Shown: positions 1,173 through 17,035 of the stretch, in pieces
How positions within the stretch are numbered: position 1 is the first letter of the stretch
Layout: each line of letters starts with the position of its first letter
Assembly: GCA_020241865.1 (NCBI GenBank)
Contig: GCA_020241865.1_4709.1
Source of the DNA: a phage
Reading direction: 5' to 3' (one strand)
DNA: 64,000 nucleotides
Notes under the pieces: generated by a model
Database searches by the model: none
Told to the model about the DNA's origin: nothing
Seen by the model: only the letters and a program-made list of their open reading frames with translations
Position numbers and translations under genes: made by a program

Positions 1173-3785
1173 TTAAGCGTCCGGCGTAAAATCAAAAGGA
1201 ATGTCCGTACGAATGATATCATAACGTTTTCCGAGGAAATAAAACTCTTCGGGAACCTGACCGGGAATAATGCTATCACCGATGAACTGCGGATACGCCC
1301 AGATGTACTGAGTGAGTCCTTCGAACATATCCAGGTTATTTGCGTGGTTACCCATGATACGTTTCCAGAGTTCGCGTTTATACGGCGTTTTAACATCGAA
1401 ACCATAAAGCGGTGCAAGATCTTCACCAGGAACAAATCCCAGGTAATAGTGAATCTGACTAACCGGGAAACCAAGCGTATCTCGCGGAATGGTGATCGCT
1501 TGCTCAGCTTTGGTGACATGCGTTTCAATAATCCAGTCGTAACACTCTGAATAGAACCGATCGAATTTCTCTGGATTATACCACGCTTTGGGAAGATTCA
1601 GTTTCTCCGTGAACGCATTCGACATGATCGTCGGTAAGAACGGAAGAACACCGGTTTTGATCTGCGTGTATTTCGATTTTACCCGGTTAGCCAAATTCCA
1701 GCAACTGTATCCTAACTGTTCGTTACAAAACTCAACGTAGAGATCGTAATCACCGCCGGATAATGGGTTGTTGATATCACCAATGTCTGCAGCGTATTTG
1801 TTGGGATATCGGTTATTGAAAGCCAGTTTGGTTTGGTAATCGTAGATACACGGTTTGTTGTTCGCTGTATTGATCCACCACCAGGGTTCACCCACCTGTA
1901 CACAAATGTCCTGGACATGAGGGTAAATAATATCGGCAAACGCGGTTAACACATCCCCTAACCACGCCATCGCCTGTTGGTTACATGGAGACAGCAACCA
2001 GGATGGTGGTGTATATCCGGTTGCTGCGATGTTTCCTTCCCAATCCTGCTGCGCCCACTCGAACGGGCATGCTGTACTCATCAATTCGTAACTTAAACTG
2101 ATGGTGACAGAGAAATGGTGTTTTGCAGCATATGCGGCGAAAGCTTCATGCCACGCGATACAGGGTGGATTTAATACATCCGTGGTGTTCACCAGTAACT
2201 TACCCGCACTTGGCGTCCAGACAGTATCGTAGAAATGCGACATTCCAACATAATGCACTAATTCATCTTGATACCCCGCATAAACCAGGTTCTCAAATAC
2301 GCGCTCCGGCGTGATGTTGTAATGGTCATCATAAGCGGTTATCGCACGAAGTTCGTGTGGTGTACAGTGGTGACGATTAACCGTCATTTCCTGATACACC
2401 CCATCGATAGGAAGAATCTCGAGGGTTAAACCGAGGTCGATTGGCGTTTCCAGATAGGTCGTTTCAGTCGCACCTTCCTTATAATGTCGAGAACTCATGC
2501 TGAACATCAACGATGCTACCGATTCGAGTTCGATAGGCTCGTCAGCATAGAACCCCGCCATTGCGTCATTGAAATCGATCGTTACGATTGCGCTTCTACC
2601 GTCTTCAGAGACATCGGTGGCGTATCGGGTTAATGAGATATACTGACGGCTATCGTCTTTGTGTACGACGGTTAAAACCGGCGGGTTTTCGGTATCTGCA
2701 AAGTTACGCTGATCGCCAGTAAACGTGATCTTCGCTTTAAAGATCAAACCGAATAACGACGTCATGGGATCATACGCAATACAACCGTGATCCAGCGTAT
2801 CCGTTGTCCGCCATTCTATCCCGACCAACCCGTTAGCGGTATGGCATCGCATATACGCATTAAGTACCATGTCTTCACTGACAACCGCGAAGTTCTCTGT
2901 TGACTGACCGTTGATAATCCAATACATCGGTTGCCAGAGGTTACGCGTACCTTTTGCGTAGCGGTAGGTTGGTGCGCCTTTGGGGTTGCCATTATTAAGA
3001 TGGAATACTGCAGTACCTTGATAATGGTCGTTCGTATTAATCGGAACACTGTAAGCGTCACCGAGGTCCGTACGTTCCACCTTCGTGACCGTTGCGTTTT
3101 CAAATAACCCACGCAGCGCGGGTAAACCGATATCTTCAGGCGCGTTTTCTCGACGAATCGCATCCGCGATGCGATGGGCTAAGGCGGGGTAAATAGCTTC
3201 ACCCTGTTGTAGGTTTGCAAGACCTACAAAGCGATCAGGGTCGATACCAGCAATCAATAACTCAACATCACCCTTCGTTCTATCGTCGTTAAGATATTTC
3301 AGTCCGGTAAGGTCAAGATGCTGAATAAGCGACAACAGGTTGTATTTACGGTTTTCAACAGTTAGTACAAGATCGCCTGCCCAAACCAAACTTCCCTCAT
3401 CCGCTGTTACTTTAACAGATTGTCGGCCTGTGGTAGACGTTGTTGTCGTTTTATTTAATTGTCCTTGTAGGAAGTCGGTTGCGAGGTCAAAGGCAATGCC
3501 GTAACGGTCAGCGACCGCTTGCATGATTTCACGTAACTGGGTATCTTCTTCAATGATAATCTTGACAGGTATTCCCAGGAACGCTTTAGCGAGGTCTCGT
3601 TTAACCAACGAGACGAATACGGATTTGTAGTATCGGCTTCCATCTTTCCCTTTAAAAAGAATGGAGGTTGTTTCGGGTGCCGATAGAACACGTGCAAATA
3701 CAACATCGTCGGAAGTAAGAGAAAGTCCGTTTTTCTCGTTGACCAATCCTAGTATTTCATTTTGCGCGGTTTCATGTAACTTCAT
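1173..3785 (-). CDS. tail fibre/tailspike protein with shared N-terminal anchor module
   Basis: 870-aa ORF; N-terminal ~150 aa (VKRDLAKAFLGIPVKII ... YGIAFDLATDFL) paralogous to the N-termini of 9406..9954, 10090..11859, 15493..16323 and 54310..55764; large unrelated C-terminal domain. Confidence 0.7.
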   Translation of the reverse strand: MKLHETAQNEILGLVNEKNGLSLTSDDVVFARVLSAPETTSILFKGKDGSRYYKSVFVSLVKRDLAKAFLGIPVKIIIEEDTQLREIMQAVADRYGIAFDLATDFLQGQLNKTTTTSTTGRQSVKVTADEGSLVWAGDLVLTVENRKYNLLSLIQHLDLTGLKYLNDDRTKGDVELLIAGIDPDRFVGLANLQQGEAIYPALAHRIADAIRRENAPEDIGLPALRGLFENATVTKVERTDLGDAYSVPINTNDHYQGTAVFHLNNGNPKGAPTYRYAKGTRNLWQPMYWIINGQSTENFAVVSEDMVLNAYMRCHTANGLVGIEWRTTDTLDHGCIAYDPMTSLFGLIFKAKITFTGDQRNFADTENPPVLTVVHKDDSRQYISLTRYATDVSEDGRSAIVTIDFNDAMAGFYADEPIELESVASLMFSMSSRHYKEGATETTYLETPIDLGLTLEILPIDGVYQEMTVNRHHCTPHELRAITAYDDHYNITPERVFENLVYAGYQDELVHYVGMSHFYDTVWTPSAGKLLVNTTDVLNPPCIAWHEAFAAYAAKHHFSVTISLSYELMSTACPFEWAQQDWEGNIAATGYTPPSWLLSPCNQQAMAWLGDVLTAFADIIYPHVQDICVQVGEPWWWINTANNKPCIYDYQTKLAFNNRYPNKYAADIGDINNPLSGGDYDLYVEFCNEQLGYSCWNLANRVKSKYTQIKTGVLPFLPTIMSNAFTEKLNLPKAWYNPEKFDRFYSECYDWIIETHVTKAEQAITIPRDTLGFPVSQIHYYLGFVPGEDLAPLYGFDVKTPYKRELWKRIMGNHANNLDMFEGLTQYIWAYPQFIGDSIIPGQVPEEFYFLGKRYDIIRTDIPFDFTPDA

Positions 3786-3807: not shown

Positions 3808-4449
3808 TTAAATGTACTGCTTACCGCCCACGAAGGAAGTTAACCAGTTCCCGCTGACGAGTTGTGATACCCAGCCTGGAACGGCTCTACCATTCTGGCT
3901 CATGATGTTACCACACCAACCAGGGAATCCGGGACGGATGTAATAGAAAGTTAAATTGTAGAGATGGCAATTCCATACCGCAACGTTATGTTTACCAGAA
4001 ACCGCTTTAAAGACAAACGCGACAGGTAACGGAGACGATAACAATTCGGTCACAGGGACGGCTGACCAGTTCGCATTCGCGTTCCATGGTTGCCAGGTAT
4101 GGCTGCGCGAGTCGCAATATACGTTACCGTTGTTACCGCGCCCACCCGCATTCCACCACAGCGACGGACTCATGTTCTTAAGTGAGGTAAATTGCTGCGG
4201 TGGAATATTAGGAATAATAACAGGGTTGGTACCTTGCCCATGTTTCTTTTCTTTTGCGTTCACATACCCGCTTATCGATTCGAGGTATTTGACACCAGGA
4301 TAATTATTCTGGACTTGTGTCGCAATATCACGAACATCGAACGTCCAGCAGATCATGGTGTTGTAGTAAGCATCGGTGTTGTCGTACCATGCGTTACCAT
4401 CTTGTAAACGTGCGCCACTATTCGGTGTTTTATCTGTGTTTATAGCCAT
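3808..4449 (-). CDS. small protein of the tail-fibre locus, paralog of 4561..5277
   Basis: 213-aa ORF; C-terminal 40 aa (GFPGWCGNIMSQNGRAVPGWVSQLVSGNWLTSFVGGKQYI) nearly identical to the C-terminus of 4561..5277. Confidence 0.55.
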   Translation of the reverse strand: MAINTDKTPNSGARLQDGNAWYDNTDAYYNTMICWTFDVRDIATQVQNNYPGVKYLESISGYVNAKEKKHGQGTNPVIIPNIPPQQFTSLKNMSPSLWWNAGGRGNNGNVYCDSRSHTWQPWNANANWSAVPVTELLSSPLPVAFVFKAVSGKHNVAVWNCHLYNLTFYYIRPGFPGWCGNIMSQNGRAVPGWVSQLVSGNWLTSFVGGKQYI

Positions 4450-4547: not shown

Positions 4548-4578
4548 TATCTAACTTCAATTAAATTGAAGTTAGATA
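4548..4578 (-). terminator. 31-bp perfect palindrome (15-bp arms) overlapping the stop codon of 4561..5277; terminator or operator-like site
   Basis: tATCTAACTTCAATT-A-AATTGAAGTTAGATa with every position paired; on the minus strand it is followed by a U-rich tract (CUGUUUUAUCUG). Confidence 0.4.
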
Positions 4579-5277
4579 TTGTTTACCTCCAACAAACGAC
4601 GTTAACCAATTACCTGAAACAAGTTGCGATGCCCAGCCAGGCACTGCCCTACCGTTCTGGCTCATCACGTTACCTGCCCATCCCGGAAAACCAGGTCGGA
4701 AAATATATACTTGAATATGTGTTAAAGCGTTATCATTACCACCGCCAACAGCAACGTTACGACTCCCAGATGACGGGAAATATTCTTTTAAGAACAGAGG
4801 ATCGGTTGCTAATAAAGATGCGGGCCAAGGGTTCGCAGATGCATCAACATCGAATTCGGTCCATCGCCATTTACGTCCCGTGTCGAACCATGTCGATGTA
4901 CCACCACCCCTCACGACAAGATTGCGCGCATCATGGACATTATAAATTGATTCGATGTTACGCCATCCACCTTTTGCAGCGTTTGCTGCATAGCAAACCG
5001 CATTACCACCATTCTTCTTCTCGTAAACGGTTCGTTTGATATGAACACGGTCGATGAACGCTTCACCGTATTTGTTGACGAGCGTTTGTGCGATATCACG
5101 AAGATCGTGCATGTGAAAAGCGATGTCTTCGTTATGGAACCATGTTGTCTGGTTCCAGACGGTACCGTTTGGTTCGGCACACATCGATCGGATATTGTTG
5201 CGTTGATTAATCGCGATAAAACCCATTGTATACCTCGTTCCTATTCTCAAAAAGGAAATTTCATACGATGACGCCAT
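4561..5277 (-). CDS. small protein of the tail-fibre locus, paralog of 3808..4449
   Basis: Track ORF 4561..5313 trimmed to ATG at 5277 (MASSYEISF), because the first 12 codons are the translation of hairpin 5282..5311; the 3' arm of that hairpin (GGAGGAGC) sits 4 nt upstream of this ATG as a Shine-Dalgarno sequence. Confidence 0.55.
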   Translation of the reverse strand: MASSYEISFLRIGTRYTMGFIAINQRNNIRSMCAEPNGTVWNQTTWFHNEDIAFHMHDLRDIAQTLVNKYGEAFIDRVHIKRTVYEKKNGGNAVCYAANAAKGGWRNIESIYNVHDARNLVVRGGGTSTWFDTGRKWRWTEFDVDASANPWPASLLATDPLFLKEYFPSSGSRNVAVGGGNDNALTHIQVYIFRPGFPGWAGNVMSQNGRAVPGWASQLVSGNWLTSFVGGKQYLTSI

Positions 5278-5281
5278 AGCA

Positions 5282-5311
5282 GCTCCTCCTTCCCTTACGG
5301 GTTGGAGGAGC
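5282..5311 (-). terminator. GC-rich hairpin (8-bp stem GCTCCTCC/GGAGGAGC, 14-nt loop) between genes; its purine arm doubles as the ribosome-binding site of 4561..5277
   Basis: Inverted repeat 5282-5289/5304-5311; loop ttcccttacgggtt matches the loops of the hairpins at 149 and 43776. Confidence 0.55.
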
Positions 5312-5319
5312 ATACTTAA

Positions 5320-5826
5320 TTACTTACTGATAACCTCAACGGAGTTGGGATCAGCGATCAATGCACGATCGGTAGAACAGTTGAAGAAGACCATACCAAC
5401 ACCATCACCGTTCGAGTTCAGGGTTGAACTTACATAAGACAGGGTTGGTTTATTCATGCGGTAGAAGCGTTCGCTGGTAGTGGTATTGAACCCCAGATCA
5501 ACGTAGTCTTTCACCGTGGTGTACAACTGTGTGGACTCGAAAACGGTTACCGGAGAGTCAACGGTAAACTGACTGCCTTCATCCACAACCAGAACTTTAT
5601 CGTTCCAGATTTCAGTGGTTGAAAACTTCGGTTTCCAGTGTTCGAATTCCTGGGTTGCGCCCCAGCAAGAATAAACAGCGAGATTGCTGTTCTTCTCAAC
5701 AGGTTTCAACCCCACCAGTTGTGTCAGGTCTTTATCCAGGTTCGGTAAGCCTTCCAGCGTAGCGCACCCACCCAGAGAAAGTACCATCAACATACCAAGA
5801 ACGATCGCGCAGAGTTTTTTCATCAT
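5320..5826 (-). CDS. putative lipoprotein (candidate receptor-blocking or superinfection-exclusion protein)
   Basis: Start placed at tandem ATG ATG (5821..5826) preceded by AAGGAAA; signal peptide MMKKLCAIVLGMLMVLSLGGC with lipobox-like LGGC; sits inside the receptor-binding locus. Confidence 0.6.
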   Translation of the reverse strand: MMKKLCAIVLGMLMVLSLGGCATLEGLPNLDKDLTQLVGLKPVEKNSNLAVYSCWGATQEFEHWKPKFSTTEIWNDKVLVVDEGSQFTVDSPVTVFESTQLYTTVKDYVDLGFNTTTSERFYRMNKPTLSYVSSTLNSNGDGVGMVFFNCSTDRALIADPNSVEVISK

Positions 5827-5874
5827 TAGATTTCCTTGTGTGTTAACGGAAGTGACTTCCATAAGGATTGATGA

Positions 5875-8800
5875 TTACTTTTTGAGCGCTTTAAGTTCTT
5901 CTTCCAACGCTTCCACTTTTGCCGTAAGCTTCTGTACTTGTTTGATTAATGGAACCACCAAACGTTCGTACATGACACCTTCAGCGACGAGTCCGTTAGA
6001 AGAAACGATAGCGGGGTCATCTTCTTCTGTTGCATCACGCCAGTGCACGTACTGCGGTGCGATCTCGCCAACCTCTTCAGCAATCAACCCATACCAACCC
6101 CAATCCTTGTTGTCTGCTTCACATGTAGAACGATACCACACAGGACGCATCTCCAATACTTTATCCGCTTGTTCATCCGTGATATTCTCGATATCTTTCT
6201 TATAGCGACGCGACGACGTTGAACGAAACACATTGTTGATCCCAGAAACAGGACTGATATACATGTTAGCCCCGCTGGTTGTAGTGCTAATGTCCCATAC
6301 CGCAAATCCGCCGTTACTCCCATTTTTTACGATCAATGTGTTGGCAATAATGTCCAGGTTATTGTCGTAACCGGTTAATTGTCTTTCCGTTACATAACTG
6401 GATAGATTGACCGAGTAGTTCTTACTGTTATAACAACGACGCCATCCTGGGCTGTTGGTACTGCCATTATAGTTGTCGTAGCTATAAATGAACTCGGAGT
6501 TGGTTTTCGCACCACTGACGGAAGACGTGGTTGCGGTCGTAACACGGATGGTATAGTTTGTCATCCCGAAGCTAACGACCTCGATAACAGCACCAGCCAG
6601 AGGGATAATACCGCACTTGGTTTCACTGTCTGGGATGTATGCGCTGTCGGCAGCTGCGAAGGAGCAACGTGCGACCCAGGCGCGGGTATTGAATGCACCT
6701 TGGTTTTGCAACAACGTGATAAACGATGAGGTCGTAATCGAGCTGTTATTATCACCGGTGATCAACCAGCCGGTCGGGCATGCGGTTGCGCCAACGTTTT
6801 TCGCTGTTAACGTGATGTTCTGCGATCCGTCGAAGGCTACGCCACTGATAGTACGCGCAGTCTGCAGTTTCGTCGCCGTTGCTGCGTTCCCTGATGTGTT
6901 CTGGTTCCCTGCGGCGTTAACACCCGGCAGATTGATATTCGCACTACCGTCGAAAGACACCCCACCAATGGTGCGGGCGGTTTTCAGTTTTGTCGCCGTG
7001 GCGGCATTACCGGTCGTGTCTTGGTTACCGGTGGTGTTTACCCCAGGTAGGTTGATATTGGCCGTTCCGTTAAATGAAACACCACCAATCGTCCGTGCCG
7101 TTTGCAACTTCGTTGCGGATGCCGCATTCCCCGTGGTGTTTTGGTTACCTGTTGTATTCACACCTGGGATACTATCCTTAGATGTGTAGATCTGTGCCCA
7201 TTCCGACCAGTTCGCATCTGATGCATCACGACGCGAACGTAGGTAAGCTGGAGCGTGTGCGCCTGAAGTACCTGACCATCCAATAAGGATCTCACCTTCA
7301 CCTACTGCGGTTGCTCCTTTAAGATGAACAACGTTACCGTAGGCTGTAGGGTATCCGTTATTGTACGCTTCATACATCTGGATACCCGTATTGCTGCCCT
7401 GGGTCGCATTAGCTAAAGCGGTGACCCGTCCCTTGGAAGCGAGCACGTTAATGCTAAAGCTAATATCGGTTGTACCGTCAAAGGCGACCCCATTAATCCT
7501 CCGCGCTGTTTGGAGTTTCGTGGCAGTAGCCGCATTACCAGAGGTACTCTGATTGCCTGCTTTGTTCACACCTGGTAAATCAATGTTGGCGGTTCCATCA
7601 AAGGACACGCCCCCTATGGTTCTCGCCGTCTGAAGTTTTGTTGCTGAACCAGCGTTTCCGGAAGTGCTTTGATTACCCGCCGCGTTGACACCTGGTAGGT
7701 TAATGCTAGCAGAACCATCAAAAGAAACTCCACCGATCGTAATAGCTGTTCGCAACTTCGTGGCTGTCGCAGCGTTACCCGTCGTATTCTGATTACCAGC
7801 TGCATTGACGCCAGGTAATGCGATATCAGCTGTGCCATCGAACGCGACACCTCCGATTTTACGGGCGGTTTGTAGCTTGGTTGCTGTAGCAGCATTACCG
7901 CTGGTATTTTGCGTACCGGCTTTATTTACACCAGGAAGATCGATGTTAGCAGAACCATCGAAGCTGACGCCACCTATCGTTCTTGCAGTAGCAAGTTTAG
8001 CGGCTGTAGCAGCGACGTTACCGACTTTTAACCATTCTCCCCATGGACCATCCACACCGTTCCATGATGCCGTTAAACTGCGCACGTATATGTTTCCTGT
8101 ACGTACTGTGTAACGTTGTGTTCCACCGAATTGACCGGCTGGGAGCACTTCGATGTAACCTACAGCATTTGCTTCAGGGAAATTGTGGGCAGCATCGGCA
8201 TTCGTTGATGTTTGTTTGGACCAAATACCCACAGACGCTTCAACCGGACCGTAGGTATTCAGGTTTGCATCGGTTGGGAGTTGTCCTCTGAAACGACGGA
8301 ACGACGAGGCGTTAATTCCCAATATCGTTTGCATCCCTTCAACACCGGACTGCTGTAAGAGAGCGCGTGCGGTAGAAGTGATCGTTGCAAGCGCTACTTT
8401 ATCAGCACCTGTGAAATACGGTAATTTATTCGCTGATGTTGTTAGTCCAGAAAGGGCTGTGAGCAAAGCGTTCAGCGGTTGTTTGCCAGCTAAAGCGTTT
8501 GTTACAGTTGTCGCGAAGTTAGGATCGTTACCTAACGCTTGCGCCAATTCATTGAGTGTGTCCAACGCTTCAGGAGACGATCCGACAAGCGCTGCGATAG
8601 CACGCATCACAAATTCGGTATTCGCAATCTGCTGACTTTTATCGCCTTCGGCTGCGGTTGGTGTTGTCGGCTTATCGGTAAATGCCGGGCTAGAAAGATC
8701 CGCTTTAGCGCTAATTTGTGTTGCTAGGACTTTCCCGGCTTTCGCGGATAGTGCGAGTACTTCACTATCACTGTTCGTCGCCGAGGTTAACTGAACTAAC

Positions 8801-9399
8801 CCTTTACGTGTGGTACTAGCGTCCACTGCTGTGTACTTTCCTTTCGCAACATCCATCACAGCTTTAACTGCTTTTGATGTTGCGGCTTTGGTTTCGTCGT
8901 CACTATTTGTTTCGCTGCTAAGGATCGTTAATCCCCGTTTCTCGGTGGTCGCATCTGGTAAGAATGCGTCACTAACAACCTTCAATTCGATCGCATCGGT
9001 ATTGCTTACGACAACAAATACCTGACAATTTAACACACGTCCTGCCCCTTCGGAAGGCAGTGGTTTGTACCCTTCTGGCGCATTGCCGACAACGACAAGT
9101 TCACCCTGATCGTCGTACAGACCGATCTCACGCACCCAGAACCCACCTTGACTGGCGGGAATAATGCCTTCAACAACAATCCGGGTTGTGTCGTCAACAT
9201 CAATGTGGATGTTAGAAACTTCCCCACGATAAACTTCGTGTACGAGCGCTGTTTGGCTAACATCGGGGGTTGGTGTAGAGCCGTTTCCGTCACCAACAGC
9301 AAAATGTGTGATTCTTAGTTTCTCACCGTCAGGAAGTAGCGCTGCGGCAATACGTTCAGCGCCTTTATCGGTAATGACCGTTTTATAAGTTGTACTCAT
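5875..9399 (-). CDS. long tail fibre: P2 gpH/Stf-like N-terminus, Phage_fiber_2 tandem repeats, C-terminal S74-type intramolecular chaperone
   Basis: 1174-aa ORF; N-terminus MSTTYKTVITDKGAERIAAALLPDGEKLRITHFAVGDGNG is collinear with P2 H / lambda Stf N-termini; eight ~40-aa repeats (ATATKLQTARTIGGVSFDGSANI(D/N)LPGVN); C-terminus has the STSSRRYKKDIENI motif and a coiled-coil tail typical of self-cleaving chaperone domains. Confidence 0.85.
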   Translation of the reverse strand: MSTTYKTVITDKGAERIAAALLPDGEKLRITHFAVGDGNGSTPTPDVSQTALVHEVYRGEVSNIHIDVDDTTRIVVEGIIPASQGGFWVREIGLYDDQGELVVVGNAPEGYKPLPSEGAGRVLNCQVFVVVSNTDAIELKVVSDAFLPDATTEKRGLTILSSETNSDDETKAATSKAVKAVMDVAKGKYTAVDASTTRKGLVQLTSATNSDSEVLALSAKAGKVLATQISAKADLSSPAFTDKPTTPTAAEGDKSQQIANTEFVMRAIAALVGSSPEALDTLNELAQALGNDPNFATTVTNALAGKQPLNALLTALSGLTTSANKLPYFTGADKVALATITSTARALLQQSGVEGMQTILGINASSFRRFRGQLPTDANLNTYGPVEASVGIWSKQTSTNADAAHNFPEANAVGYIEVLPAGQFGGTQRYTVRTGNIYVRSLTASWNGVDGPWGEWLKVGNVAATAAKLATARTIGGVSFDGSANIDLPGVNKAGTQNTSGNAATATKLQTARKIGGVAFDGTADIALPGVNAAGNQNTTGNAATATKLRTAITIGGVSFDGSASINLPGVNAAGNQSTSGNAGSATKLQTARTIGGVSFDGTANIDLPGVNKAGNQSTSGNAATATKLQTARRINGVAFDGTTDISFSINVLASKGRVTALANATQGSNTGIQMYEAYNNGYPTAYGNVVHLKGATAVGEGEILIGWSGTSGAHAPAYLRSRRDASDANWSEWAQIYTSKDSIPGVNTTGNQNTTGNAASATKLQTARTIGGVSFNGTANINLPGVNTTGNQDTTGNAATATKLKTARTIGGVSFDGSANINLPGVNAAGNQNTSGNAATATKLQTARTISGVAFDGSQNITLTAKNVGATACPTGWLITGDNNSSITTSSFITLLQNQGAFNTRAWVARCSFAAADSAYIPDSETKCGIIPLAGAVIEVVSFGMTNYTIRVTTATTSSVSGAKTNSEFIYSYDNYNGSTNSPGWRRCYNSKNYSVNLSSYVTERQLTGYDNNLDIIANTLIVKNGSNGGFAVWDISTTTSGANMYISPVSGINNVFRSTSSRRYKKDIENITDEQADKVLEMRPVWYRSTCEADNKDWGWYGLIAEEVGEIAPQYVHWRDATEEDDPAIVSSNGLVAEGVMYERLVVPLIKQVQKLTAKVEALEEELKALKK
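6620..8100 (-). repeat. diverged tandem coding repeats (Phage_fiber_2-type) inside the fibre gene
   Basis: Five plus three ~120-nt units encoding the GNAATATKLQTARTIGGVSFDGS motif; they generate the antisense pseudo-ORFs at 6617..7189 and 7805..8113; boundaries approximate. Confidence 0.7.
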
Positions 9400-9405
9400 G
9401 GCGTT

Positions 9406-9954
9406 TTATCCCGGGTAAATAGTGATGACATCACCGATGACAGTTGCCGCACCGGCGCAAAGATACGCTGGTGATGTATCACGCTGGTTTGTCACGATAA
9501 GATCCAATTGCCCACGCCAAACCATGGAGGTATTCGCGATGGGAATCGAGATCTTCTTGGATGTGTCGTCACGAAAATCAATGACAGTAGCAAGGATAGC
9601 TGAATCAAAATCAGCATCGGTTTCAAAGATGAATCCGTACTGATCTGAAATAGCTTGAATAACCGCTCTTATAGTTGTTGTTTCAACCGACTCCAAAACG
9701 ATTTTCATCGGTATCCCTAGAAACGCTTTCGCGATATCACGTCGTGTGTAAGTGATAAAACTTTCACCACACCACCTTGTTCCTTCATTTGCTGTGACGA
9801 TCACTTTTGCCCTGTTAGCACCAGAACTCCTATCCAGGGTTAAAGTGAGATCGGAGTTGCTGAACACGCTACCGTTACGTTGGTTTATCAACGTAATCAG
9901 TTCGTCTTTCCACGGCAGGTAAAGTGAACGCATAAGCGCACCCTCCTCCAACAA
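9406..9954 (-). CDS. anchor-module-only protein (N-terminal fibre domain with no distal domain)
   Basis: 182-aa ORF; contains the shared module (YTRRDIAKAFLGIPMKIVL ... YGFIFETDADF) and ends 6 nt before the start of fibre gene 5875..9399. Confidence 0.6.
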   Translation of the reverse strand: MLEEGALMRSLYLPWKDELITLINQRNGSVFSNSDLTLTLDRSSGANRAKVIVTANEGTRWCGESFITYTRRDIAKAFLGIPMKIVLESVETTTIRAVIQAISDQYGFIFETDADFDSAILATVIDFRDDTSKKISIPIANTSMVWRGQLDLIVTNQRDTSPAYLCAGAATVIGDVITIYPG

Positions 9955-9973
9955 TCAAATTAAGATGCAAAAC

Positions 9974-10001
9974 GCCTCGAAACCGGAGTGCGATTCGAGG
10001 C
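9974..10001 (-). terminator. rho-independent terminator (8-bp stem, 12-nt loop) downstream of fibre gene 10090..11859
   Basis: GCCTCGAA/TTCGAGGC inverted repeat; on the minus strand it is followed by GUUUUGCAUCUUAAUUU. Confidence 0.6.
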
Positions 10002-10046
10002 AAACGTAAACAGTCTTAACGACCGCATAAAATTCCGCGCATATTA

Positions 10047-10058
10047 CCCCCCCCCCCC
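10047..10058. repeat. C12 homopolymer (G12 on the minus strand) in an intergenic hairpin context
   Basis: 12 consecutive C, followed by TCGCTTCGTCGAGGTAGGGGAGG, which can pair with the C tract; 32 nt downstream of the stop of 10090..11859. Confidence 0.9.
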
Positions 10059-10089
10059 TCGCTTCGTCGAGGTAGGGGAGGATAACACT

Positions 10090-11859
10090 TTATGCCGCTA
10101 CATACCCAGGCCAACGTTCTCTTGGCCAGTTTGTTGCGCCCTGTCCAACGTTGTCCTTACCAGAAGTTACATTACTTACGTCCCAACCACTAAGATCCTG
10201 GTTAAATGCGGTGTTGTTGCGCATCATGAGGTCGATCCTACGTAACGATTGGGTATTCCAGCCGGAAATGTCTTGGTTGAATGCCGCGTTGTAAGCAAAC
10301 ATGTTAACAACGTCTTGTAATTTTGAAGTGTTCCAGCCGCTTATATCGCTATTGAACCGCATGTTCGAGAACATACTGCTAGCGTTGACAAGACTACCTG
10401 TTTTCCAGTTAACCAGCTTGTCCCCATCAAGTGCATAGCAGCTACTGAACATGTAACTCATGTCGTTAACTTTGGATACATCCCATTTATCTAACCCGTT
10501 ACCAACGAACTTGCGACAATCTTGGAACATCGAGCTCATATCGGTAACCTGGCTCACATTCCATTTGCTAAAGTCGAGGTTGAGGTTTGTGCATCCGGAG
10601 AAGGTTTGATACATACTGGTGATACGACTAACATCCCATTCTTGAATGTTAGGATCATTAAGTATAGATAAGAATTTGAACAATTCGTCTAACGACGTCC
10701 ATTTCTCTGGGATACGGTTTGGTACGGTACGGAGTGATAAAAGGTAACTGGTTGACGGAGAGCGGAACATACCGTTATCCCAATTTACGATTTCTGTAAT
10801 GTTGGACCCACGGATCGTTTGGCGTCCGTTACCATTATACACAGACCCTGTTGCAGTTATTGTATATTCGTTTGTATCAGCATACGTATATTCAGCCTGT
10901 GTAGGCCACTCACCTATTACATCCCTATTCCCATCGCCCCAATCAATGGAAATATCTATCCAACCATCAAGATCTAGGGTAACGGTCCCGCCATTGGTCT
11001 TCAGGACGTATTTACCTGCATTGTCGGTATAATAACAAACAATCATCGCACCGTACAGGTTACCAATTTGCCAATCATCCTTTTGAGTTACCGCGATATG
11101 TGCTGTGCCACGTTGTAGGAAAAGAACCGTACGGTTCTCGTCAGTCTGTAATGTGGTTAATGCTTGAGCCTTATCATCGTCGGTAATTTCACCAGCTTCC
11201 ACTAAAGCACTTAACATTCTTTCGAAGTATTCGATGGGTAATTGGCGTCCTACAGACATATCAACTGATGGAACAGCGAGATCATCCAATGCGGCGGCAG
11301 TTGCAAGCACTAATGATCCATTGGTGGTGTCTGTTTCTTGGAGGTAATGCAGTCCCGTAATCTGGTACGCTTGAATGATTGTAATCAGATCCAGCGTATC
11401 GTTAATGACCTGTACTTGTAAATGTCCAGACCAAACATAGCTGCTTTCAGCAATCGGTAATTCGACCGACTGAATACCCGATGTTTCAAAACTGATCTTC
11501 TTATTAAGATCGGCTTCCAGGAAATCAACCGCGAGGTCGAAATTTATACCGTACTTTTCAGCGATGGAATCTATGATGTTCCTGAAAGCAACATCGGTAC
11601 TTACGATGAATCGTAAAGGGATTCCTGTGAACGCATTAGCAATATCTCGACGAACATACGTAAGTGATTGTTCGAAGAAATAGGGACTGTTATCTCCAGG
11701 TTTGATGGTTACCTGACACATTTCAGGATGTTCAGCTGGGATGAACGATTCAAATTTAACATCGGATTCCTTCAACGAAAGCATGTTCTTCCGGTTTACC
11801 AGCGCCAGAAGATCGGCTTTCCATCCAGGATAAACAGTAGACATAAGCACTCCAATCAT
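10090..11859 (-). CDS. tail fibre with shared N-terminal anchor module and C-terminal DUF285 (BspA-like) repeats
   Basis: 589-aa ORF; N-terminus YVRRDIANAFTGIPLRFIV ... YGINFDLAVDFL; C-terminal repeats such as WNVSQVTDMSSMF, WDVSKVNDMSYMF and FNQDISGWNT match the DUF285 repeat pattern. Confidence 0.75.
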   Translation of the reverse strand: MIGVLMSTVYPGWKADLLALVNRKNMLSLKESDVKFESFIPAEHPEMCQVTIKPGDNSPYFFEQSLTYVRRDIANAFTGIPLRFIVSTDVAFRNIIDSIAEKYGINFDLAVDFLEADLNKKISFETSGIQSVELPIAESSYVWSGHLQVQVINDTLDLITIIQAYQITGLHYLQETDTTNGSLVLATAAALDDLAVPSVDMSVGRQLPIEYFERMLSALVEAGEITDDDKAQALTTLQTDENRTVLFLQRGTAHIAVTQKDDWQIGNLYGAMIVCYYTDNAGKYVLKTNGGTVTLDLDGWIDISIDWGDGNRDVIGEWPTQAEYTYADTNEYTITATGSVYNGNGRQTIRGSNITEIVNWDNGMFRSPSTSYLLSLRTVPNRIPEKWTSLDELFKFLSILNDPNIQEWDVSRITSMYQTFSGCTNLNLDFSKWNVSQVTDMSSMFQDCRKFVGNGLDKWDVSKVNDMSYMFSSCYALDGDKLVNWKTGSLVNASSMFSNMRFNSDISGWNTSKLQDVVNMFAYNAAFNQDISGWNTQSLRRIDLMMRNNTAFNQDLSGWDVSNVTSGKDNVGQGATNWPRERWPGYVAA

Positions 11860-11882
11860 GGGGCGGTAACCGCCCCCATCAG

Positions 11883-14800
11883 TTAAATTGTCGGTTTCAC
11901 GTCGCGTAATAGGGCAATATAATAGCCTAATCCTCGGAGGATCTCCCCACTCCAGAAACCAAAATACATTCCGTCTCTGCCGAGATTAGCACTATCTGGT
12001 GCAGGACTCCACCCACCATTCATTGCGTCATCAACGGTGTAGCGGTTGATGTAGTTTTCAACGATTTCATTATAAACGTTAACGGCAACAGGATAGCCTT
12101 TATCGTTGGGATGCCCATACAACATCGCTAACGACGCACCCGCTAACCATAATCCTGCCATATGACCAGTAAAGTCATTAGGGATAAAAGCAGGGGGTTT
12201 ATCCATCGGAAAATCCGTAGGAGATTGATAAGCGTTTTCCTGTTGATACGTAAACAAGAAATCGATCCAATGGCTGATGTAAGTGGTTAACTTCTCAGGG
12301 ACAGCCAAACCACGATCAAGCAGTCCGGCATAAAGCCTCACCACTGAAAAGAAAGCCCTCGGCTGATAACCAGGCCATGCTGTCTGATCGCCGAAGTGGT
12401 ACATCGTAAAATCATTAACTTTCGATCCGCTTGGCGCATCCCAACGATCCCACACGTACGCACTTGCTCCTGGCCCTAAAACCCCGAATTTCTGATAATA
12501 CCACTGCTGCGAGTCATACCAGAAATTCACAACATTCTGAATCATGAGGTCACGTCGTTCAGCCGATACGTCCATATCCAGGAAGACCCATGGATGTTGG
12601 TAGCCGGGATAAGGCTGACCACGCCAGCTGTCGAACGTCGGTGCGTTAGGGATATAGTTGTTCGAGAACGGAATAATACCCGGAGTATAAGGCAATGGAT
12701 CCAGACGTTGGTTGACAATCGTACAATCGCCAACACGCAATGTGCCCTCTGCCTCAAAGATTGCTTTTAACGTAAACAGCATGGTATATCCGTCATCCGT
12801 GGTGTAAGTTGACGGTGGATTGTTGATGGCGTAAAGCTTAAATACCCCTTCAGCGATATCGCTGTCATCAGGCAAGAACAGAATTTCAGTTGAACCGTCG
12901 CCCCACACAGGTGCGGAAGGTTTAGGGTCAGTATCAGCATGGCCAGGTTGATACCCTGAGAGCCTCCATCCGTTCGCCGAAAGCGTCAATGTATTTCTTG
13001 CTGTGGTGGCCGGTAGCATATACCACCATCGCCAACCATTTGCATCTTCTACACGAACGTTGTAGTCAATCGACGCGAAATAACTGACCTGCCTTACGAT
13101 CTGTTTTGCGGTTGGATTGAATTCAAATTGTCCGCCTGCCGCAGTAAGCTGCGCTTTTAGGAACAACCCATCCCAGGAATCTTCCACTGCTTCGCTGAAT
13201 TCTGTTGTGATTGCGATATCGTCTTTCCAGCCGACTTTATCAGCCGACATCAACACCGAACCTGTAACAGCATCACCGGTTGGTATTGAAGCTTCATCAA
13301 CCGCATCAGCGGGAATCAACGAGCCTATTTTGAAATCCCATCCTTTCGGTTCAACGCTGGAAGGTAATACCAGCTTGTACGTTTTGGCTTTCGCTTCGGT
13401 TTTGTCCAAAGAAAGCGATAATGAGATCTCAACCGGAATTGCAACGCCTGTCGTATCTTTACCGCCGCAGGTTACCCGAAGAATTGAATCACGATTGACG
13501 CGGAACGGAATGGCCTGCTGTTCAAGGTAAATTTGTGCTGAAGATGCTTGAATCACGATCCAACCATCGGTATCACGCGTGATTGTGAACGGCGCTTTCG
13601 ACGGGTATGTATACGTGTAAGCGATACCGTCGGTGTCGTAACGATCGGTTCCTTTTACTTGACGGAAGAACTTATCGTTAGCGTCAATACGGGTATATTC
13701 TTCAATCGTAAACAAAGACGCCTTGTACGCTTTCTGATAACGCTCCTGCTGCGTTAAACGGTATAAGGTGTAGGCTGCTTCACAAAACCACTGTTCAGCG
13801 TCTGACGCGTTTCCCATGTAGTCTCTGGTGACCGGCACCTGGATCGGTCGGTTATGCTGACACTCGTTCGTTTTGATAAGGTATCCGCCATATTCAACAG
13901 GAACACGCGGTGCCCATGCAACCAAGTAAGAACCGCTGACGGATTTATTTTTGAGTACGATAGTACCTACTTCATCGTCAGTACACGCTTCAAGATCGTC
14001 CCCGTCAGCACTTACGTAACGTTTTGTGCGTAACGCAACTTTCTCGATAGGGAACACCGTACCCTTTGTATCCCAGTCAATCGTCCCATCATCATTGGTT
14101 TTGAACACATCCGCGTTCAAATTCTGCCAGCCGAGTTTACCTTCATAGACCTGAACAACAAGATCCATGTATTCCCCGAACGTTGGTGCCCCATGTGTTA
14201 TTTTCCCGATACCGTTGGTGAATGTAACCGCTGTGTCATGGAAACCGCCATGTGTTGGGTAATCGTCTTTTGCAAGAGGATAATGGGCCAACACAGGTTG
14301 TTTACCATTAACAATCCAGTTAGCGATCCAGCGTGCCGGTGTATCCGGTGGTTCAAGGCCTGCATAGAACGCTTTTATATACGCATCGAACGATGCCTCT
14401 GCTAATGTGAGATAGTGCGCTTTAAGCTTGGTATCATCCGTTGTATGACTGAATATACCCGCACCCAGAATTAACAACGACTGTCCTTCTGTTGTTGCGT
14501 CACCATCCGGTTGTGCTTCTTGTCGTGTTGCTGCAATGAAATGACGGTTGTTTACCATGACCCCGCTTTCATTTAACACGTAATGATCGGTTTCTGGGTC
14601 GGTAAACGTTCCTGTGTTTCGGGTTAAGAATCTTGCATGGCCATAACCAACGAAATTAACCGGCGACGCTGTAATCATCCATTTACCGATAAGTTGAGCA
14701 ACATCATTATAACGCTCGGATGCGGTGATTTGTTTCACGTACCAGTCTTTATGGTTAAATGTCCAAAGCAGGAAGTAATAAGTTGTATCGATTTCCATCA

Positions 14801-15479
14801 CTGGGAACGTCGGCGTTAACGGCTCCAGCGTTAAGTAGTTGCTCCAGTCAATCTGTCCGCCAACCACCGATGGGGTAATCTCTAATAACTGACACCATTC
14901 ATAACGGTCCGGTACACTACTGGACGTTGTTGGTAAAGGTAACTTGTATACGCCAGTACGATTCAGATCGAACGCTTTTCTAGCCGATCCTAAATCAACA
15001 TAAATACTCGATGATGCGCTTGCACTATATGCCCCCAAAGCACCTAGCGTTGACCGATACATTGAGATGAACAACGTATCTTTCCAGTAAGGGTTATCCT
15101 TGGTTGGTTCTAAAGCGATTTGTGCGGAGATGCTGTTCCATGTCCCTAACTGGTATGTCGCATTTAAAGATTCTTCTGTGAAATAACTTTCTGCAATCGT
15201 CAGATGGAACTGCTCGTTCAATAACGCGAGTGCGGCGCGGCCAGTAACATCCTCGTTACCGGTTTCTTTTTTCACGATCGCGCCGAACGGAAACAGTGTC
15301 GCGAATGACCGTTTTGGTTTATTAACCGTAACCGTCCCTGTGTAATTTCCAACACCGTCGAGTTTTTGACTATCGCCAACAGCAGTGACTGCGATACCAT
15401 CAACCGGGATATCTGTTTTATTTAGTATATTGAGTTGGTCAACCAGATCCTGCTTATCGTCAGGTAAGAATGTCGCCAT
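11883..15479 (-). CDS. large tail/baseplate-associated structural protein (possible tailspike)
   Basis: 1198-aa ORF inside the fibre locus; the N-terminal ~80 aa resemble the shared anchor module only weakly; no catalytic motif recognised. Confidence 0.55.
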   Translation of the reverse strand: MATFLPDDKQDLVDQLNILNKTDIPVDGIAVTAVGDSQKLDGVGNYTGTVTVNKPKRSFATLFPFGAIVKKETGNEDVTGRAALALLNEQFHLTIAESYFTEESLNATYQLGTWNSISAQIALEPTKDNPYWKDTLFISMYRSTLGALGAYSASASSSIYVDLGSARKAFDLNRTGVYKLPLPTTSSSVPDRYEWCQLLEITPSVVGGQIDWSNYLTLEPLTPTFPVMEIDTTYYFLLWTFNHKDWYVKQITASERYNDVAQLIGKWMITASPVNFVGYGHARFLTRNTGTFTDPETDHYVLNESGVMVNNRHFIAATRQEAQPDGDATTEGQSLLILGAGIFSHTTDDTKLKAHYLTLAEASFDAYIKAFYAGLEPPDTPARWIANWIVNGKQPVLAHYPLAKDDYPTHGGFHDTAVTFTNGIGKITHGAPTFGEYMDLVVQVYEGKLGWQNLNADVFKTNDDGTIDWDTKGTVFPIEKVALRTKRYVSADGDDLEACTDDEVGTIVLKNKSVSGSYLVAWAPRVPVEYGGYLIKTNECQHNRPIQVPVTRDYMGNASDAEQWFCEAAYTLYRLTQQERYQKAYKASLFTIEEYTRIDANDKFFRQVKGTDRYDTDGIAYTYTYPSKAPFTITRDTDGWIVIQASSAQIYLEQQAIPFRVNRDSILRVTCGGKDTTGVAIPVEISLSLSLDKTEAKAKTYKLVLPSSVEPKGWDFKIGSLIPADAVDEASIPTGDAVTGSVLMSADKVGWKDDIAITTEFSEAVEDSWDGLFLKAQLTAAGGQFEFNPTAKQIVRQVSYFASIDYNVRVEDANGWRWWYMLPATTARNTLTLSANGWRLSGYQPGHADTDPKPSAPVWGDGSTEILFLPDDSDIAEGVFKLYAINNPPSTYTTDDGYTMLFTLKAIFEAEGTLRVGDCTIVNQRLDPLPYTPGIIPFSNNYIPNAPTFDSWRGQPYPGYQHPWVFLDMDVSAERRDLMIQNVVNFWYDSQQWYYQKFGVLGPGASAYVWDRWDAPSGSKVNDFTMYHFGDQTAWPGYQPRAFFSVVRLYAGLLDRGLAVPEKLTTYISHWIDFLFTYQQENAYQSPTDFPMDKPPAFIPNDFTGHMAGLWLAGASLAMLYGHPNDKGYPVAVNVYNEIVENYINRYTVDDAMNGGWSPAPDSANLGRDGMYFGFWSGEILRGLGYYIALLRDVKPTI

Positions 15480-15492
15480 TATTTACTCCACC

Positions 15493-16323
15493 TTAATCGT
15501 AACTAAAATAAAGTTTGCTGCTGACGCCGCTATCGGAATGAGGTTTTAATACCAGAACAGAGCTTCCGAACGACGGAAGTATTGGAACATCTAAATCGTT
15601 CGCATCGGCAACTTTTCCATTATAAACGACATTGGCTGTTGTGATGAGTTCCCAGGCTAAGGTATAACTCATTGAAATCAGCGACGAGGCTAAACGGAAC
15701 GCATTGTATCCTTCTGGAGTATCTCCAACCGACATCGAACGTATCGCATCTTGCGGCGGTAAATTTAGCTTGATGCCGTATGTACTGAATGTGTGGAAAT
15801 CCCCTTGTTTACTATCTTCTGGATAATACGAGGTTAGCGGTTCTCGTACCGTAAACAGTTCGCTAATATCGGTACTTACCGCTTTTCGTGCGAGGAATTG
15901 AAACGTACCGTACCACGATGCCGATGCATCAGAATGAACGGGAACAGATATGGTTTTCTCGCCGCTTTCGAATTTAACCTGTGACGCTAACGCTGAAGAA
16001 TCAAAGATCGTTAAATCGATCTTCAACCCATACTTCTTAAACAGCTGCGTTAAGCAGTCTGCTATCGTCGTCATATCAGCAACGACAATAAAAGGTTGGT
16101 GTTTGATAAAGAGCTTATTAATGTCTCGACGTTGAAGATAAACCTGTACGGAGTCTTCGATATAGTAAGTCGATTGTGGTGTGGGGACTATAGAAAGGCG
16201 TAACCGACCCGATGCACCATACCAGGCTGGCGTTAACATAATGTCTGACAGGGATAATGGATGCTGGAGATAGGTGTTTATTTTAGATAACACTTCCTCC
16301 TGCCATGATGCTTCAGGATACAT
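15493..16323 (-). CDS. tail fibre-like protein with divergent copy of the shared N-terminal anchor module
   Basis: 276-aa ORF; YLQRRDINKLF ... YGLKIDLTIFD matches the module pattern (W-x-EE-L, RRDI, YG-x-x-D) of the other fibre genes. Confidence 0.55.
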   Translation of the reverse strand: MYPEASWQEEVLSKINTYLQHPLSLSDIMLTPAWYGASGRLRLSIVPTPQSTYYIEDSVQVYLQRRDINKLFIKHQPFIVVADMTTIADCLTQLFKKYGLKIDLTIFDSSALASQVKFESGEKTISVPVHSDASASWYGTFQFLARKAVSTDISELFTVREPLTSYYPEDSKQGDFHTFSTYGIKLNLPPQDAIRSMSVGDTPEGYNAFRLASSLISMSYTLAWELITTANVVYNGKVADANDLDVPILPSFGSSVLVLKPHSDSGVSSKLYFSYD

Positions 16324-16382
16324 GCTGACCTCATAGATGATCGTTGATAGGAAAGAAACCTAATTCATACCATGGGAACCTC

Positions 16383-16439
16383 AAAAAAAAAACGAAAAAA
16401 TAGGAAAACGGTGTTCATCCTTTTTAGGGATGAACACCG
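16383..16439 (-). terminator. strong rho-independent terminator closing the fibre-locus transcription unit
   Basis: 12-bp perfect stem (16409-16420/16428-16439, loop tttttag) followed on the minus strand by a U tract (A10 at 16383-16392 on plus). Confidence 0.8.
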
Positions 16440-16459
16440 CGTACCGTTATATCGAACGA

Positions 16460-17035
16460 TTAGTAAGGAATCAGATCATTAAGCTTTTCTTCTTCAATGA
16501 CAAAGAAGTTGTTCTGGTCGTCTAAATCTGTTAACAGGACTTGTCCGACAGTAAAGCACGTACCGCCCTTCTTAGGCACCCATACCGGCTCATTCGTTAC
16601 CTTATCGGGATACCATTTGAAACGATTGGTATCCAAGAAGAACGCTGCTTTGTTTGCTTTATCGGTTGAACGATAGCTAACCAATGCAGGCCACTCAATC
16701 CAGGTGTTTGTGCATGGTACATGTAAAGGATACCATGCGCGCCAGCGTTTGCCCGGACTGTTAGGATCAACCCAATACTCGGCAGTCAATACAGCATCTT
16801 TATAATGTTTCTGCATTAACATTTCGAGCACAAGCTCATTGCCTTTTGATGCGTCTAAAGTCACTTCCGTCATATAAAGAGATTTAGGTAATTCAGACTG
16901 TTTTGCGGGTGTTACAACACCGGTAACCAACGGTCTGCTCGGTTTACGTTTCTGTTCTTTCCGACGTGTGTAAAAGAATAGTCCGATAGATACAGCAACA
17001 AGTATAATAAACAACACTACCTTAATCCAATTCAT
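16460..17035 (-). CDS. membrane-anchored protein (N-terminal signal-anchor)
   Basis: 191-aa ORF; N-terminal hydrophobic helix MNWIKVVLFIILVAVSIGLFFYTRRK followed by a soluble domain. Confidence 0.5.
   Translation of the reverse strand: MNWIKVVLFIILVAVSIGLFFYTRRKEQKRKPSRPLVTGVVTPAKQSELPKSLYMTEVTLDASKGNELVLEMLMQKHYKDAVLTAEYWVDPNSPGKRWRAWYPLHVPCTNTWIEWPALVSYRSTDKANKAAFFLDTNRFKWYPDKVTNEPVWVPKKGGTCFTVGQVLLTDLDDQNNFFVIEEEKLNDLIPY

Follow-up and report, generated by a model that had tools for sequence, protein, structure and literature searches.

A DUF7941 protein ending in a P2 gpI-type tail is a candidate adaptor for a P2-type tail fibre in a Goslar-like chimallivirus

We describe a small gene (9406..9933) in a 64,000-nucleotide (nt) stretch of phage DNA (contig GCA_020241865.1_4709.1; hereafter the window) whose 175-amino acid (aa) product appears to combine parts of two unrelated protein families. 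Residues 1-150 (9484..9933) comprise a DUF7941 N-terminal subdomain with an alpha/beta fold, while residues 151-175 (9409..9483; …SPAYLCAGAATVIGDVITIYPG-COOH) make up a tail. Sequence comparison robustly indicates that this tail (residues ~149-175 of the protein) is homologous to the extreme C-terminal tail of gpI of phage P2. A gene for a P2/P1-type tail fibre of 1174 aa (5875..9399) follows directly; both genes, like all features given below unless marked otherwise, are on the complementary strand. It is hypothesized, with a probability of roughly 60%, that the small protein is a chimeric adaptor in two parts, through which the phage can bear this P2-type fibre. The DUF7941 domain would serve as the anchor by plugging into the phage's own peripheral baseplate or DUF7941 network, and the gpI tail would serve as the docking peptide: each would bind one trimer of gpH-type N-terminal domains, contributed by the fibre whose gene starts 6 nt downstream. 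The narrower proposal that the gpI tail is a portable 'fibre plug', captured together with gene H and grafted onto a chimallivirus anchor domain, has in our estimate slightly better than even odds. An initial annotation of this DNA had raised the idea of a separate adaptor that gives the P2-H-like fibre its attachment site; the sequence comparisons presented here support that idea and sharpen it to a DUF7941 domain plus gpI tail. The DUF7941 family and the Goslar orthologue of the small protein have already been described, and the gpI-derived tail and what it implies go unmentioned in the accessible portion of the text of the Goslar preprint.

By nucleotide identity, the window belongs to a Goslar-like chimallivirus: bases 5000-17000 are 92.6% identical to Escherichia phage Goslar, with 68% of the query covered. 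Goslar is a nucleus-forming jumbo phage of 237 kb in the Chimalliviridae. The small open reading frame (ORF) corresponds to Goslar gp091 ('hypothetical protein') and the next gene to gp090 ('tail fiber protein'). Goslar gp91 (HOV27_gp091, YP_009820776) is the same kind of protein, with 85% aa identity, a length of 175 aa and a position 6 nt upstream of gp90. The fibres differ in that the window fibre carries an S74 self-chaperone, whereas Goslar has a separate Tfa. An ORF of 182 aa does exist at 9406..9954, as initially annotated, but position 9954 merely marks the earliest TTG that could open it. Translation truly begins at ATG 9933, which lies 8 nt after the Shine-Dalgarno-like GGAGGAGGG (9942..9950) and is also the start of Goslar gp91 and of the full-length orthologues (175-176 aa). 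The annotated distance to the fibre gene was confirmed, in that the TAA stop (9408..9406) is followed by the 6-nt spacer AACGCC (9400..9405) and then by the fibre ATG.

The small ORF is a real and constrained gene under selection like that on the DUF7941 domains of known virion proteins. A protein search returned 35 close homologues of 109-176 aa, of which the complete ones are 175-176 aa long and 58-99% identical. The ORF is intact in more than 20 related genomes at 175-176 aa, and at 173 aa in L029, the most divergent lineage; the same gene occupies the same place in loci from metagenomes, IMG/VR and a Salmonella assembly. Its ratio of nonsynonymous to synonymous substitution rates (dN/dS) is 0.19-0.34, compared with 0.12-0.48 for the DUF7941 domain of an 870-aa paralogue and 0.16-0.31 for gp93-like proteins. 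An alignment of 25 orthologues contains 56 invariant columns. The corresponding polymorphism ratio (pN/pS) is 0.37 for the tail and 0.30-0.34 for the folded domain. The tail is thus under purifying selection as the folded domain is, despite its predicted disorder; overall it is no more conserved than the domain, and near-invariance is limited to its last nine residues. We consider it very improbable that the ORF is a non-functional remnant, or a leader ORF for translational coupling to the fibre gene. Such a role would suit the weak Shine-Dalgarno of the fibre gene itself and a fibre start only 6-8 nt past the small-ORF stop. It is opposed by a dN/dS equal to that of bona fide DUF7941 domains, by the 56 invariant columns and by the detection of peptides in Goslar virions, as well as by L029, where the spacer is 68 nt and yet the ORF and its ...ILPG end are kept.

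The initial annotation had read the protein as an anchor module only. That reading stands for the first 150 residues, which carry a module that opens five other window proteins, but not for the C-terminus, which is the P2 gpI tail. Pfam DUF7941 (PF25613) matches residues 4-149 (E 1.5e-16; 61.2 bits against a gathering score of 27), and the match is confined to positions 3-153 of the 276-position profile. The same module opens 1173..3785, 10090..11859, 11883..15479, 15493..16323 and 54310..55764. AlphaFold2 predicted residues 1-151 to be a confident alpha/beta domain with a predicted local distance difference test score (pLDDT) of ~87-90, and residues 152-175 had a pLDDT of <50. The sole significant PDB match obtained with Foldseek was to the N-terminal domain of phiKZ gp127 (9xqd chain 0, 9xqd_0; E 1.1e-6, probability 1.00, template modelling (TM) scores of 0.55/0.63), and a sequence-profile match to phiKZ gp127 was weak (E 0.03). 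The same N-terminal fold is shared with Goslar gp22, gp23, gp31, gp33, gp34, gp86, gp92, gp93 and gp161. Compared with this family, the small protein is without linker, C-terminal subdomain and cargo domain, and its tail is from another protein family; the linker and C-terminal globular subdomain, as found in gp22, were not detected in it.

In phiKZ, the outer peripheral baseplate has six lobes, each tipped by the gp127 fold, with one gp127 per 'star lobe', where gp127 terminates a band of gp139 dimers (PMC13250141). According to the Goslar preprint (bioRxiv 10.64898/2026.04.21.720040), a linker joins the N-terminal and C-terminal domains of DUF7941, which are proposed to chain head-to-tail, and gp22 has been shown to form filaments. 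The preprint counts ten Goslar DUF7941 members, gp91 among them without an assigned role, and leaves the tail fibres and most of the peripheral baseplate unresolved. Head-to-tail oligomerisation or peripheral-baseplate attachment has been published only for gp22, gp23 and gp126-gp127.

The origin of the remaining residues was indicated by the fibre. The nearest bacterial relative of the fibre N-terminal domain (44% identity) is in an E. coli P2-like prophage, which encodes a 176-aa gpI (Tail_P2_I) immediately upstream of its fibre gene, across a 10-nt gap. Alignment of the small-protein orthologue profile with this prophage gpI using hhalign gave a single match, of residues 149-175 to gpI 150-176 (E 2.5e-6, 48% identity). 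Both stretches reach the last residue and share the pattern RDxxPxYLxAGxxxxxGDVITxYPG-COOH. Within this pattern, the gpI-shared residues GDxITxYPG were kept invariant after divergence that saturates synonymous sites, and the tail is also strongly conserved among 120 gpI homologues (…NIIQDIPGYLYTGALTYDGDIITVYPG). Three independent boundaries coincide: residue 149 is both the last of the DUF7941 match and the first with gpI homology, and the predicted fold stops at 151. The wedge-forming body of gpI (PF09684) gave no match in the small protein even at E<=10, and similarity to gpI occurs only in the last 27 residues. Pfam Tail_P2_I (PF09684) covers residues 7-143 of the 176 in gpI (encoded at L030 4460-4990), so that the model omits the stretch of gpI with an apparent role in fibre retention. 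Domain scans therefore miss the tail and grafts of it.

The tail homology was recovered by several further comparisons. A hidden Markov model (HMM) built from 47 distinct gpI tails only was run against the window and all loci compared with it, ~2,900 ORFs and proteins in total. All gp91-type proteins scored 18.4-32 bits over their final 19 residues; the best unrelated sequence scored 7.8 bits, and all DUF7941 paralogues were at or below that value. A tblastn search with the 32-residue window tail as query against 50,697 phage genomes returned 76 records, consisting of the two Goslar copies, two Arthrobacter phages (apparent chance matches) and P2-like phages. All of the P2-like matches listed fall on a gene annotated as I, tail protein or baseplate protein. 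For P2 itself, the match (61.9% over 21 aa) corresponds to the final 21 codons of gene I: it reaches 12720, with the gene I end at 12723 and the H start at 12734. The E-values are individually marginal (0.2-6), as is expected because the query is so short, and it is the consistency of the matches that counts. The Smith-Waterman score against P2 gpI was 72 and was equalled by 0 of 2000 shuffles. The L029 orthologue (42% identical) retains a different subset of the gpI residues (…VGAATYRHQRFAILPG compared with …TGALTYDGDIITVYPG), which fits common descent from a gpI tail. In pyocin R2, PA0619 is clearly homologous to gpI (E 1.3e-39) and ends in a similar kind of tail (…DGDTLEIFP), and 151 of its 177 residues are modelled in 6u5b. 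AlphaFold2 predicted the gpI tail (154-176) to be unstructured after the final strand, like that of the small protein. A reading of the tail as the start of a DUF7941 linker, to which it fits loosely through the phi-phi-T-Y-P motif of gp22, was displaced by the stronger, end-anchored gpI match. As a separate observation on gpI tails, the E. coli gpI variants P0174, P0180 and P0181 (203-217 aa, without the P0181 N-terminal extension) have an extended tail (…GDALTVYPYTPEAIIVGGDYFPAS…) in which the docking-type motif is followed by ~27 more residues with a second GDYFP-like motif; such extended tails may serve a second fibre or a different fibre type.

It may be asked whether the small protein is instead a generic, low-copy DUF7941 chain link like Goslar gp23 that acts independently of the fibre, with its tail either a recombination fossil or a means of docking other DUF7941 domains. 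We consider this unlikely, although several features agree with it. The protein has the size and layout of gp23, it matches phrog_2935, a family of ~180-aa virion proteins, and its tail can be loosely aligned to a linker motif, phi-phi-(S/T)-Y, present in gp22, gp31, gp33 and gp34. The low copy number of gp91 in Goslar virions and the keeping of the small gene in fibre-less genomes, both described below, also agree with a chain link, as does the DUF7941-DUF7941 contact network predicted in the preprint (bioRxiv 10.64898/2026.04.21.720040). Against it, the gpI-tail HMM splits the gp91-type tails (18-32 bits) from the DUF7941 paralogues (<8 bits), the tail residues that are kept invariant are those shared with gpI (GDxITxYPG), the subtype occurs only beside gpH-type fibres or their remnants, and a pN/pS of 0.37 would be unexpected of a fossil tail.

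For the chimeric adaptor, the proposed partner of the tail is the N-terminal attachment domain of the adjacent fibre. The downstream gene had been described as P2 gpH-like at its N-terminus, and this proved correct: PF12571 matches fibre residues 1-141 (E 6.9e-43), and the N-terminal domain is 42% identical to P2 gpH over 185 aligned columns. This gpH-type domain (fibre residues 1-181; 8857..9399) is 66-96% identical among Goslar-like relatives. It is followed by PF03406 repeats and a C-terminal Peptidase_S74 intramolecular chaperone domain (PF13884; 6046..6216). Relative to Goslar gp90, the fibre has an orthologous N-terminus and a different distal part. The gene order is that of P2, where gene I (176 aa) is followed by a 10-nt gap and H, as the small gene (175 aa) is by 6 nt and the fibre gene in the window. 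Thus the block of gpI tail, stop, 6-10 nt and gpH-like N-terminal domain is collinear in P2 and the window. The identity of the tail to gpI (~50-60%) is close to that of the fibre N-terminal domain (42-44%), as would be expected of one acquired block.

P2 gpI is a single-copy wedge protein (BW3 class) that has been reported as the hanging point of P2-type fibres, and receptor-binding proteins attach to the BW3 protein in T4 (gp7), A511 (gp104), pyocin R2 (PA0619) and P2 (gpI) (Sonani et al., PMC10811340). In a diffocin, the triplex protein present in single copy has an unresolved C-terminal region that 'connects to the tail fiber' (PMC10996793). In E217, one BW3 peptide lies inside the three-fold interface of the fibre N-termini (PMC10329688). 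By analogy with these systems, we infer that it is the gpI tail itself that contacts gpH.

The simplest history would be a single recombination, in which a DUF7941 gene received, in frame, a P2-like cassette made up of H, the genes downstream of it and the 3' end of gene I. The junction would lie just after the DUF7941 N-terminal domain, replacing the native linker and cargo, and inside the P2-type gene I, ~25-27 codons ahead of its stop. With the junction inside a baseplate gene, the incoming fibre would therefore bring its own docking peptide, and a gpI-tail chimera would likewise explain why this DUF7941 protein has no cargo domain. The initial annotation had also entertained a fibre gene split by an ancestral recombination that brought in the P2-type fibre. 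A recombination of that kind is what we propose, but no fibre gene was split by it, since the junction falls inside the P2-type gene I.

A strong, conserved stem-loop at 10041..10088 (-34.2 kcal/mol, z -4.6, folded on the window copy only) occupies the intergenic region between the upstream gene and the small gene. Stem-forming sequence is found at the same place in relatives, although the stem sequences differ. The hairpin divides the small gene from the upstream gene, and nothing divides the small gene from the fibre gene, whose own Shine-Dalgarno is weak and whose start lies 6-8 nt past the small-gene stop. The hairpin is likely the boundary of a transcription unit, and the small gene and the fibre gene would therefore be in one unit behind it, probably translated together. 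A conserved upstream block, GAATTTTATG, was considered as a possible phage promoter but shows no enrichment in the window (4 matches against 7.6 expected). The conserved block TATGCGCGGAATTTTATG after the hairpin likewise shows no enrichment in the rest of the window. In its 3' arm, the window hairpin has 13 consecutive G, compared with 10-11 G in L002, L012 and L013 and mixed sequence in Goslar; the run is either a length-variable homopolymer or assembly noise.

In relatives, the small gene precedes the gpH-type fibre in every lineage that has the fibre, and the small-gene subtype was found only beside gpH-type fibres or their remnants. The pair recurs even in L029, where the small protein is only 42% identical and the fibre 53%. 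The distal part of the fibre is freely swapped, with complete fibres of 1174-1324 aa that have either an S74 domain or a separate Tfa. In the window the small ORF shares its reading frame with the fibre ORF (TAA and two codons between them), as it does in Goslar, L005, L009 and others. This arrangement would permit a single anchor-fibre protein made by stop-codon readthrough or recoding, which we regard as hardly credible. The spacer is 7 nt in L012 and L010, 8 nt in L002-4, L016, L024 and L026/27, and 68 nt in L029, and these variable spacers break the frame; the reading-frame relation (spacers of 6, 7, 8 and 68 nt) is thus not conserved, and a readthrough or frameshift fusion was therefore rejected. 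In addition, the stop is always TAA, and P2 I and H are likewise separate genes.

The initial annotation had pointed to related phages as a place to look for a fused version of the two genes, and none was found. Among 77 DUF7941 cluster representatives (of 1.84 billion), all 41 long ones were scanned and never contained PF12571, their cargo domains being DUF285, LRR_5, an N4-gp65-like TIM barrel, Laminin_G_3 and similar. The 32 homologues of the fibre N-terminus, a list confined to proteins of <=317 aa, were without DUF7941. In the distant chimalliviruses Erwinia phage Asesino and Serratia phage 2050HW, only arrays of full-length DUF7941 paralogues were found, with no equivalent pair.

Recombination within the cluster is evident from hybrid small proteins (P0032, P0033) at L005 5426-5956, L010 3889-4419 and L023 2024-2554. 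Residues 1 to ~75 of these derive from the DUF7941-DUF285 paralogue (10090..11859 type) and the remainder is of gp91 type. The crossover is at the conserved YxRRDIAKAFLGIP motif, so that the C-terminal half and tail stay beside the fibre gene. Such hybrids show that DUF7941 modules of the cluster have undergone homologous recombination with one another. The fibre gene is missing from four contigs, each of a different sample, in which the Tfa gene directly follows an intact small gene (L006 3702-4653, L010 3889-4843, L021 3641-4592 and L023 2024-2978). The fibre and Tfa genes share the start ATGAGTACA (MST.Y), and this sequence suggests that the fibre was lost by deletion between short direct repeats. 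In this fibre-less lineage, gp92 is truncated to its C-terminal 456 aa and the DUF285 gene is split; L006 additionally has ACG in place of the Tfa start codon.

Label-free LC-MS/MS (tandem mass spectrometry coupled to liquid chromatography) of Goslar virions (Table S4, bioRxiv 10.64898/2026.04.21.720040) gave ~1.2 copies of gp91 per virion (0.8-1.9), detected by two peptides with 17% coverage, together with ~43 copies of the fibre gp90 (29-68) and ~52 of the Tfa gp89. By the initial annotation, the adaptor idea would fail if the two proteins did not interact and the small protein were absent from virions; gp91 is present, but at a copy number that approaches absence, in a quantitation that is noisy. 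One tail per trimer predicts ~14 copies of gp91, leaving a ~12-fold shortfall. This shortfall weighs against the chimeric adaptor, as do three other points. The contact between the gpI tail and gpH is drawn from the literature, and the tail is unresolved in the pyocin R2 structure 6u5b. The identities of the small protein and the fibre N-terminal domain are uncoupled among relatives (93% and 66% in one case, 61% and 85% in another; r about 0.3). Lastly, the fibre-less lineage retains an intact small gene, though its whole receptor-binding cluster is decaying.

With regard to the shortfall, the signal per copy for proteins of known copy number in the same table ranges from 1.8e-5 to 5.5e-4, and one modelled structural protein was undetected. 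Because this signal varies 30-fold, the shortfall weakens a structural adaptor without excluding it. With regard to the fibre-less lineage, retention of the small gene is weak evidence because the cluster is decaying and the members are closely related, and we did not accept it as proof of a fibre-independent function.

The shortfall also keeps a transient assembly role in play. In such a role, the small protein would bind the fibre N-terminus via its gpI tail, for example nucleating trimerisation or handing over the fibre, and would then mostly be released. We regard this as doubtful. The gpI-type tail is in keeping with it; the strong ribosome-binding site and the fibre start 6-8 nt past the stop suggest that its synthesis is no lower than that of the fibre, whereas a virion is estimated to contain only ~1 copy. 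This suggestion of high expression comes from sequence only, however, and the mass-spectrometric estimate is noisy. DUF7941 N-terminal domains are otherwise structural, and we know of no precedent for gpI acting catalytically.

In phages with multiple receptor-binding proteins, fibres or spikes are joined to the particle through a protein of their own, as by T4 gp9/gp10, G7C gp66 and CBA120 TSP2/TSP4. A511 gp105 and T4 gp8 have been termed 'BW3-tail-fibre-network connectors' (PMC10811340). The adaptors of T4, A511, G7C and CBA120 are similar in principle to the proposed one, but no sequence or fold relation to the small protein was detected, and unlike them the small protein is a domain-plus-peptide chimera across two unrelated phage lineages. 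The E217 gp45 'fiber attachment loop' is a case in which one extended BW3 peptide resolves a 1:3 symmetry mismatch (PMC10329688); it differs in being an internal loop that meets a coiled-coil fibre N-terminus, and the E217 proteins are non-homologous to those of the window. With P2 gpI and PA0619, the small protein has in common the last ~24-27 residues, which are unstructured alone in both; P2 gpI (176 aa) and the small protein (175 aa) are also nearly the same length and are both encoded immediately upstream of a gpH-type fibre gene. The Tail_P2_I body of P2 gpI is unrelated to the DUF7941 domain. With DUF7941 in place of that body, the small protein therefore cannot join a (gpJ)2-gpI wedge triplex.

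If the gpI tail is indeed a portable fibre plug, a ~25-residue peptide would be enough to move the capacity to carry a fibre between phage families, and a foreign fibre class would have been wired into a baseplate that is much larger and of unrelated origin. The chimera is also a clear example of modules being exchanged between phage families in evolution. Two recent virion structures leave the Goslar fibres and much of the peripheral baseplate unmodelled. The adaptor would provide a concrete, testable connection for one fibre class and would pinpoint 25 residues to delete or transplant. Such a peptide might also be used for engineering fibres onto other scaffolds and for searching for similar grafts elsewhere.

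A different fibre arrangement was seen at L026 2952-8049 and L027 2784-6612, where the fibre is called as three pieces of 280, 735 and 626 aa, the first two overlapping by 52 nt. The N-terminal domain is 66% identical to that of the window. The break between the 280- and 735-aa pieces is present in both independent assemblies; the third piece is complete in L026 only, as L027 ends inside it. This split fibre could be a frameshifted pseudogene, a genuine multi-piece fibre or a case of programmed frameshifting.

Among the neighboring genes, 10090..11859 (589 aa) encodes a paralogue with a DUF7941 N-terminal domain, a linker and DUF285/BspA-like repeats. It lies between the gp92 and gp91 homologues, where Goslar has no gene. 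Some relatives have it whole, others as two parts of 280 + 249 aa or in recombination with the small gene. Translation probably skips the first five codons (MIGVL), because orthologues and hybrids start with MSTVYPGW. Upstream of it are 11883..15479, with a weak DUF7941 N-terminus and a large tail-protein body (Goslar gp92), and 15493..16323, a DUF7941-only protein of 276 aa (Goslar gp93). These form a second pair of a DUF7941-only protein followed by a large tail protein, and gp92 and gp93 were each estimated at ~4.8-4.9 copies per virion in the Goslar mass spectrometry, which suggests a 1:1 complex present about six times per virion. A further paralogue, 54310..55764 on the plus strand, has a DUF7941 N-terminus and DUF285/LRR repeats and is Goslar gp161-like.

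On the other side of the fibre gene, 5320..5862 encodes a homologue of Goslar gp88 with a lipoprotein-like signal (…VLSLGGC) and a dN/dS of 0.02-0.06, a sign of very strong purifying selection. It is directly downstream of the fibre/Tfa genes in all relatives. At ~737 copies per virion, Goslar gp88 is among the most abundant unmodelled virion-associated proteins. The genes at 3808..4449 and 4561..5313 are paralogues without a Pfam or PHROG match; they are 38% identical, and their last ~40 residues are identical at 39 of 41 positions (RPGFPGWxGNxMSQNGRAVPGWxSQLVSGNWLTSFVGGKQY). Goslar has a counterpart of 3808..4449 only (gp87, ~19 copies per virion). Finally, 1173..3785 (Goslar gp86 homologue) combines a full DUF7941 with a domain related to N4 gp64 (E 2.4e-30, PDB 9lc0_M) and a domain related to the 'non-contractile sheath' of N4, gp65. 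The same anchor has therefore been joined to receptor-binding parts of N4 type as well.

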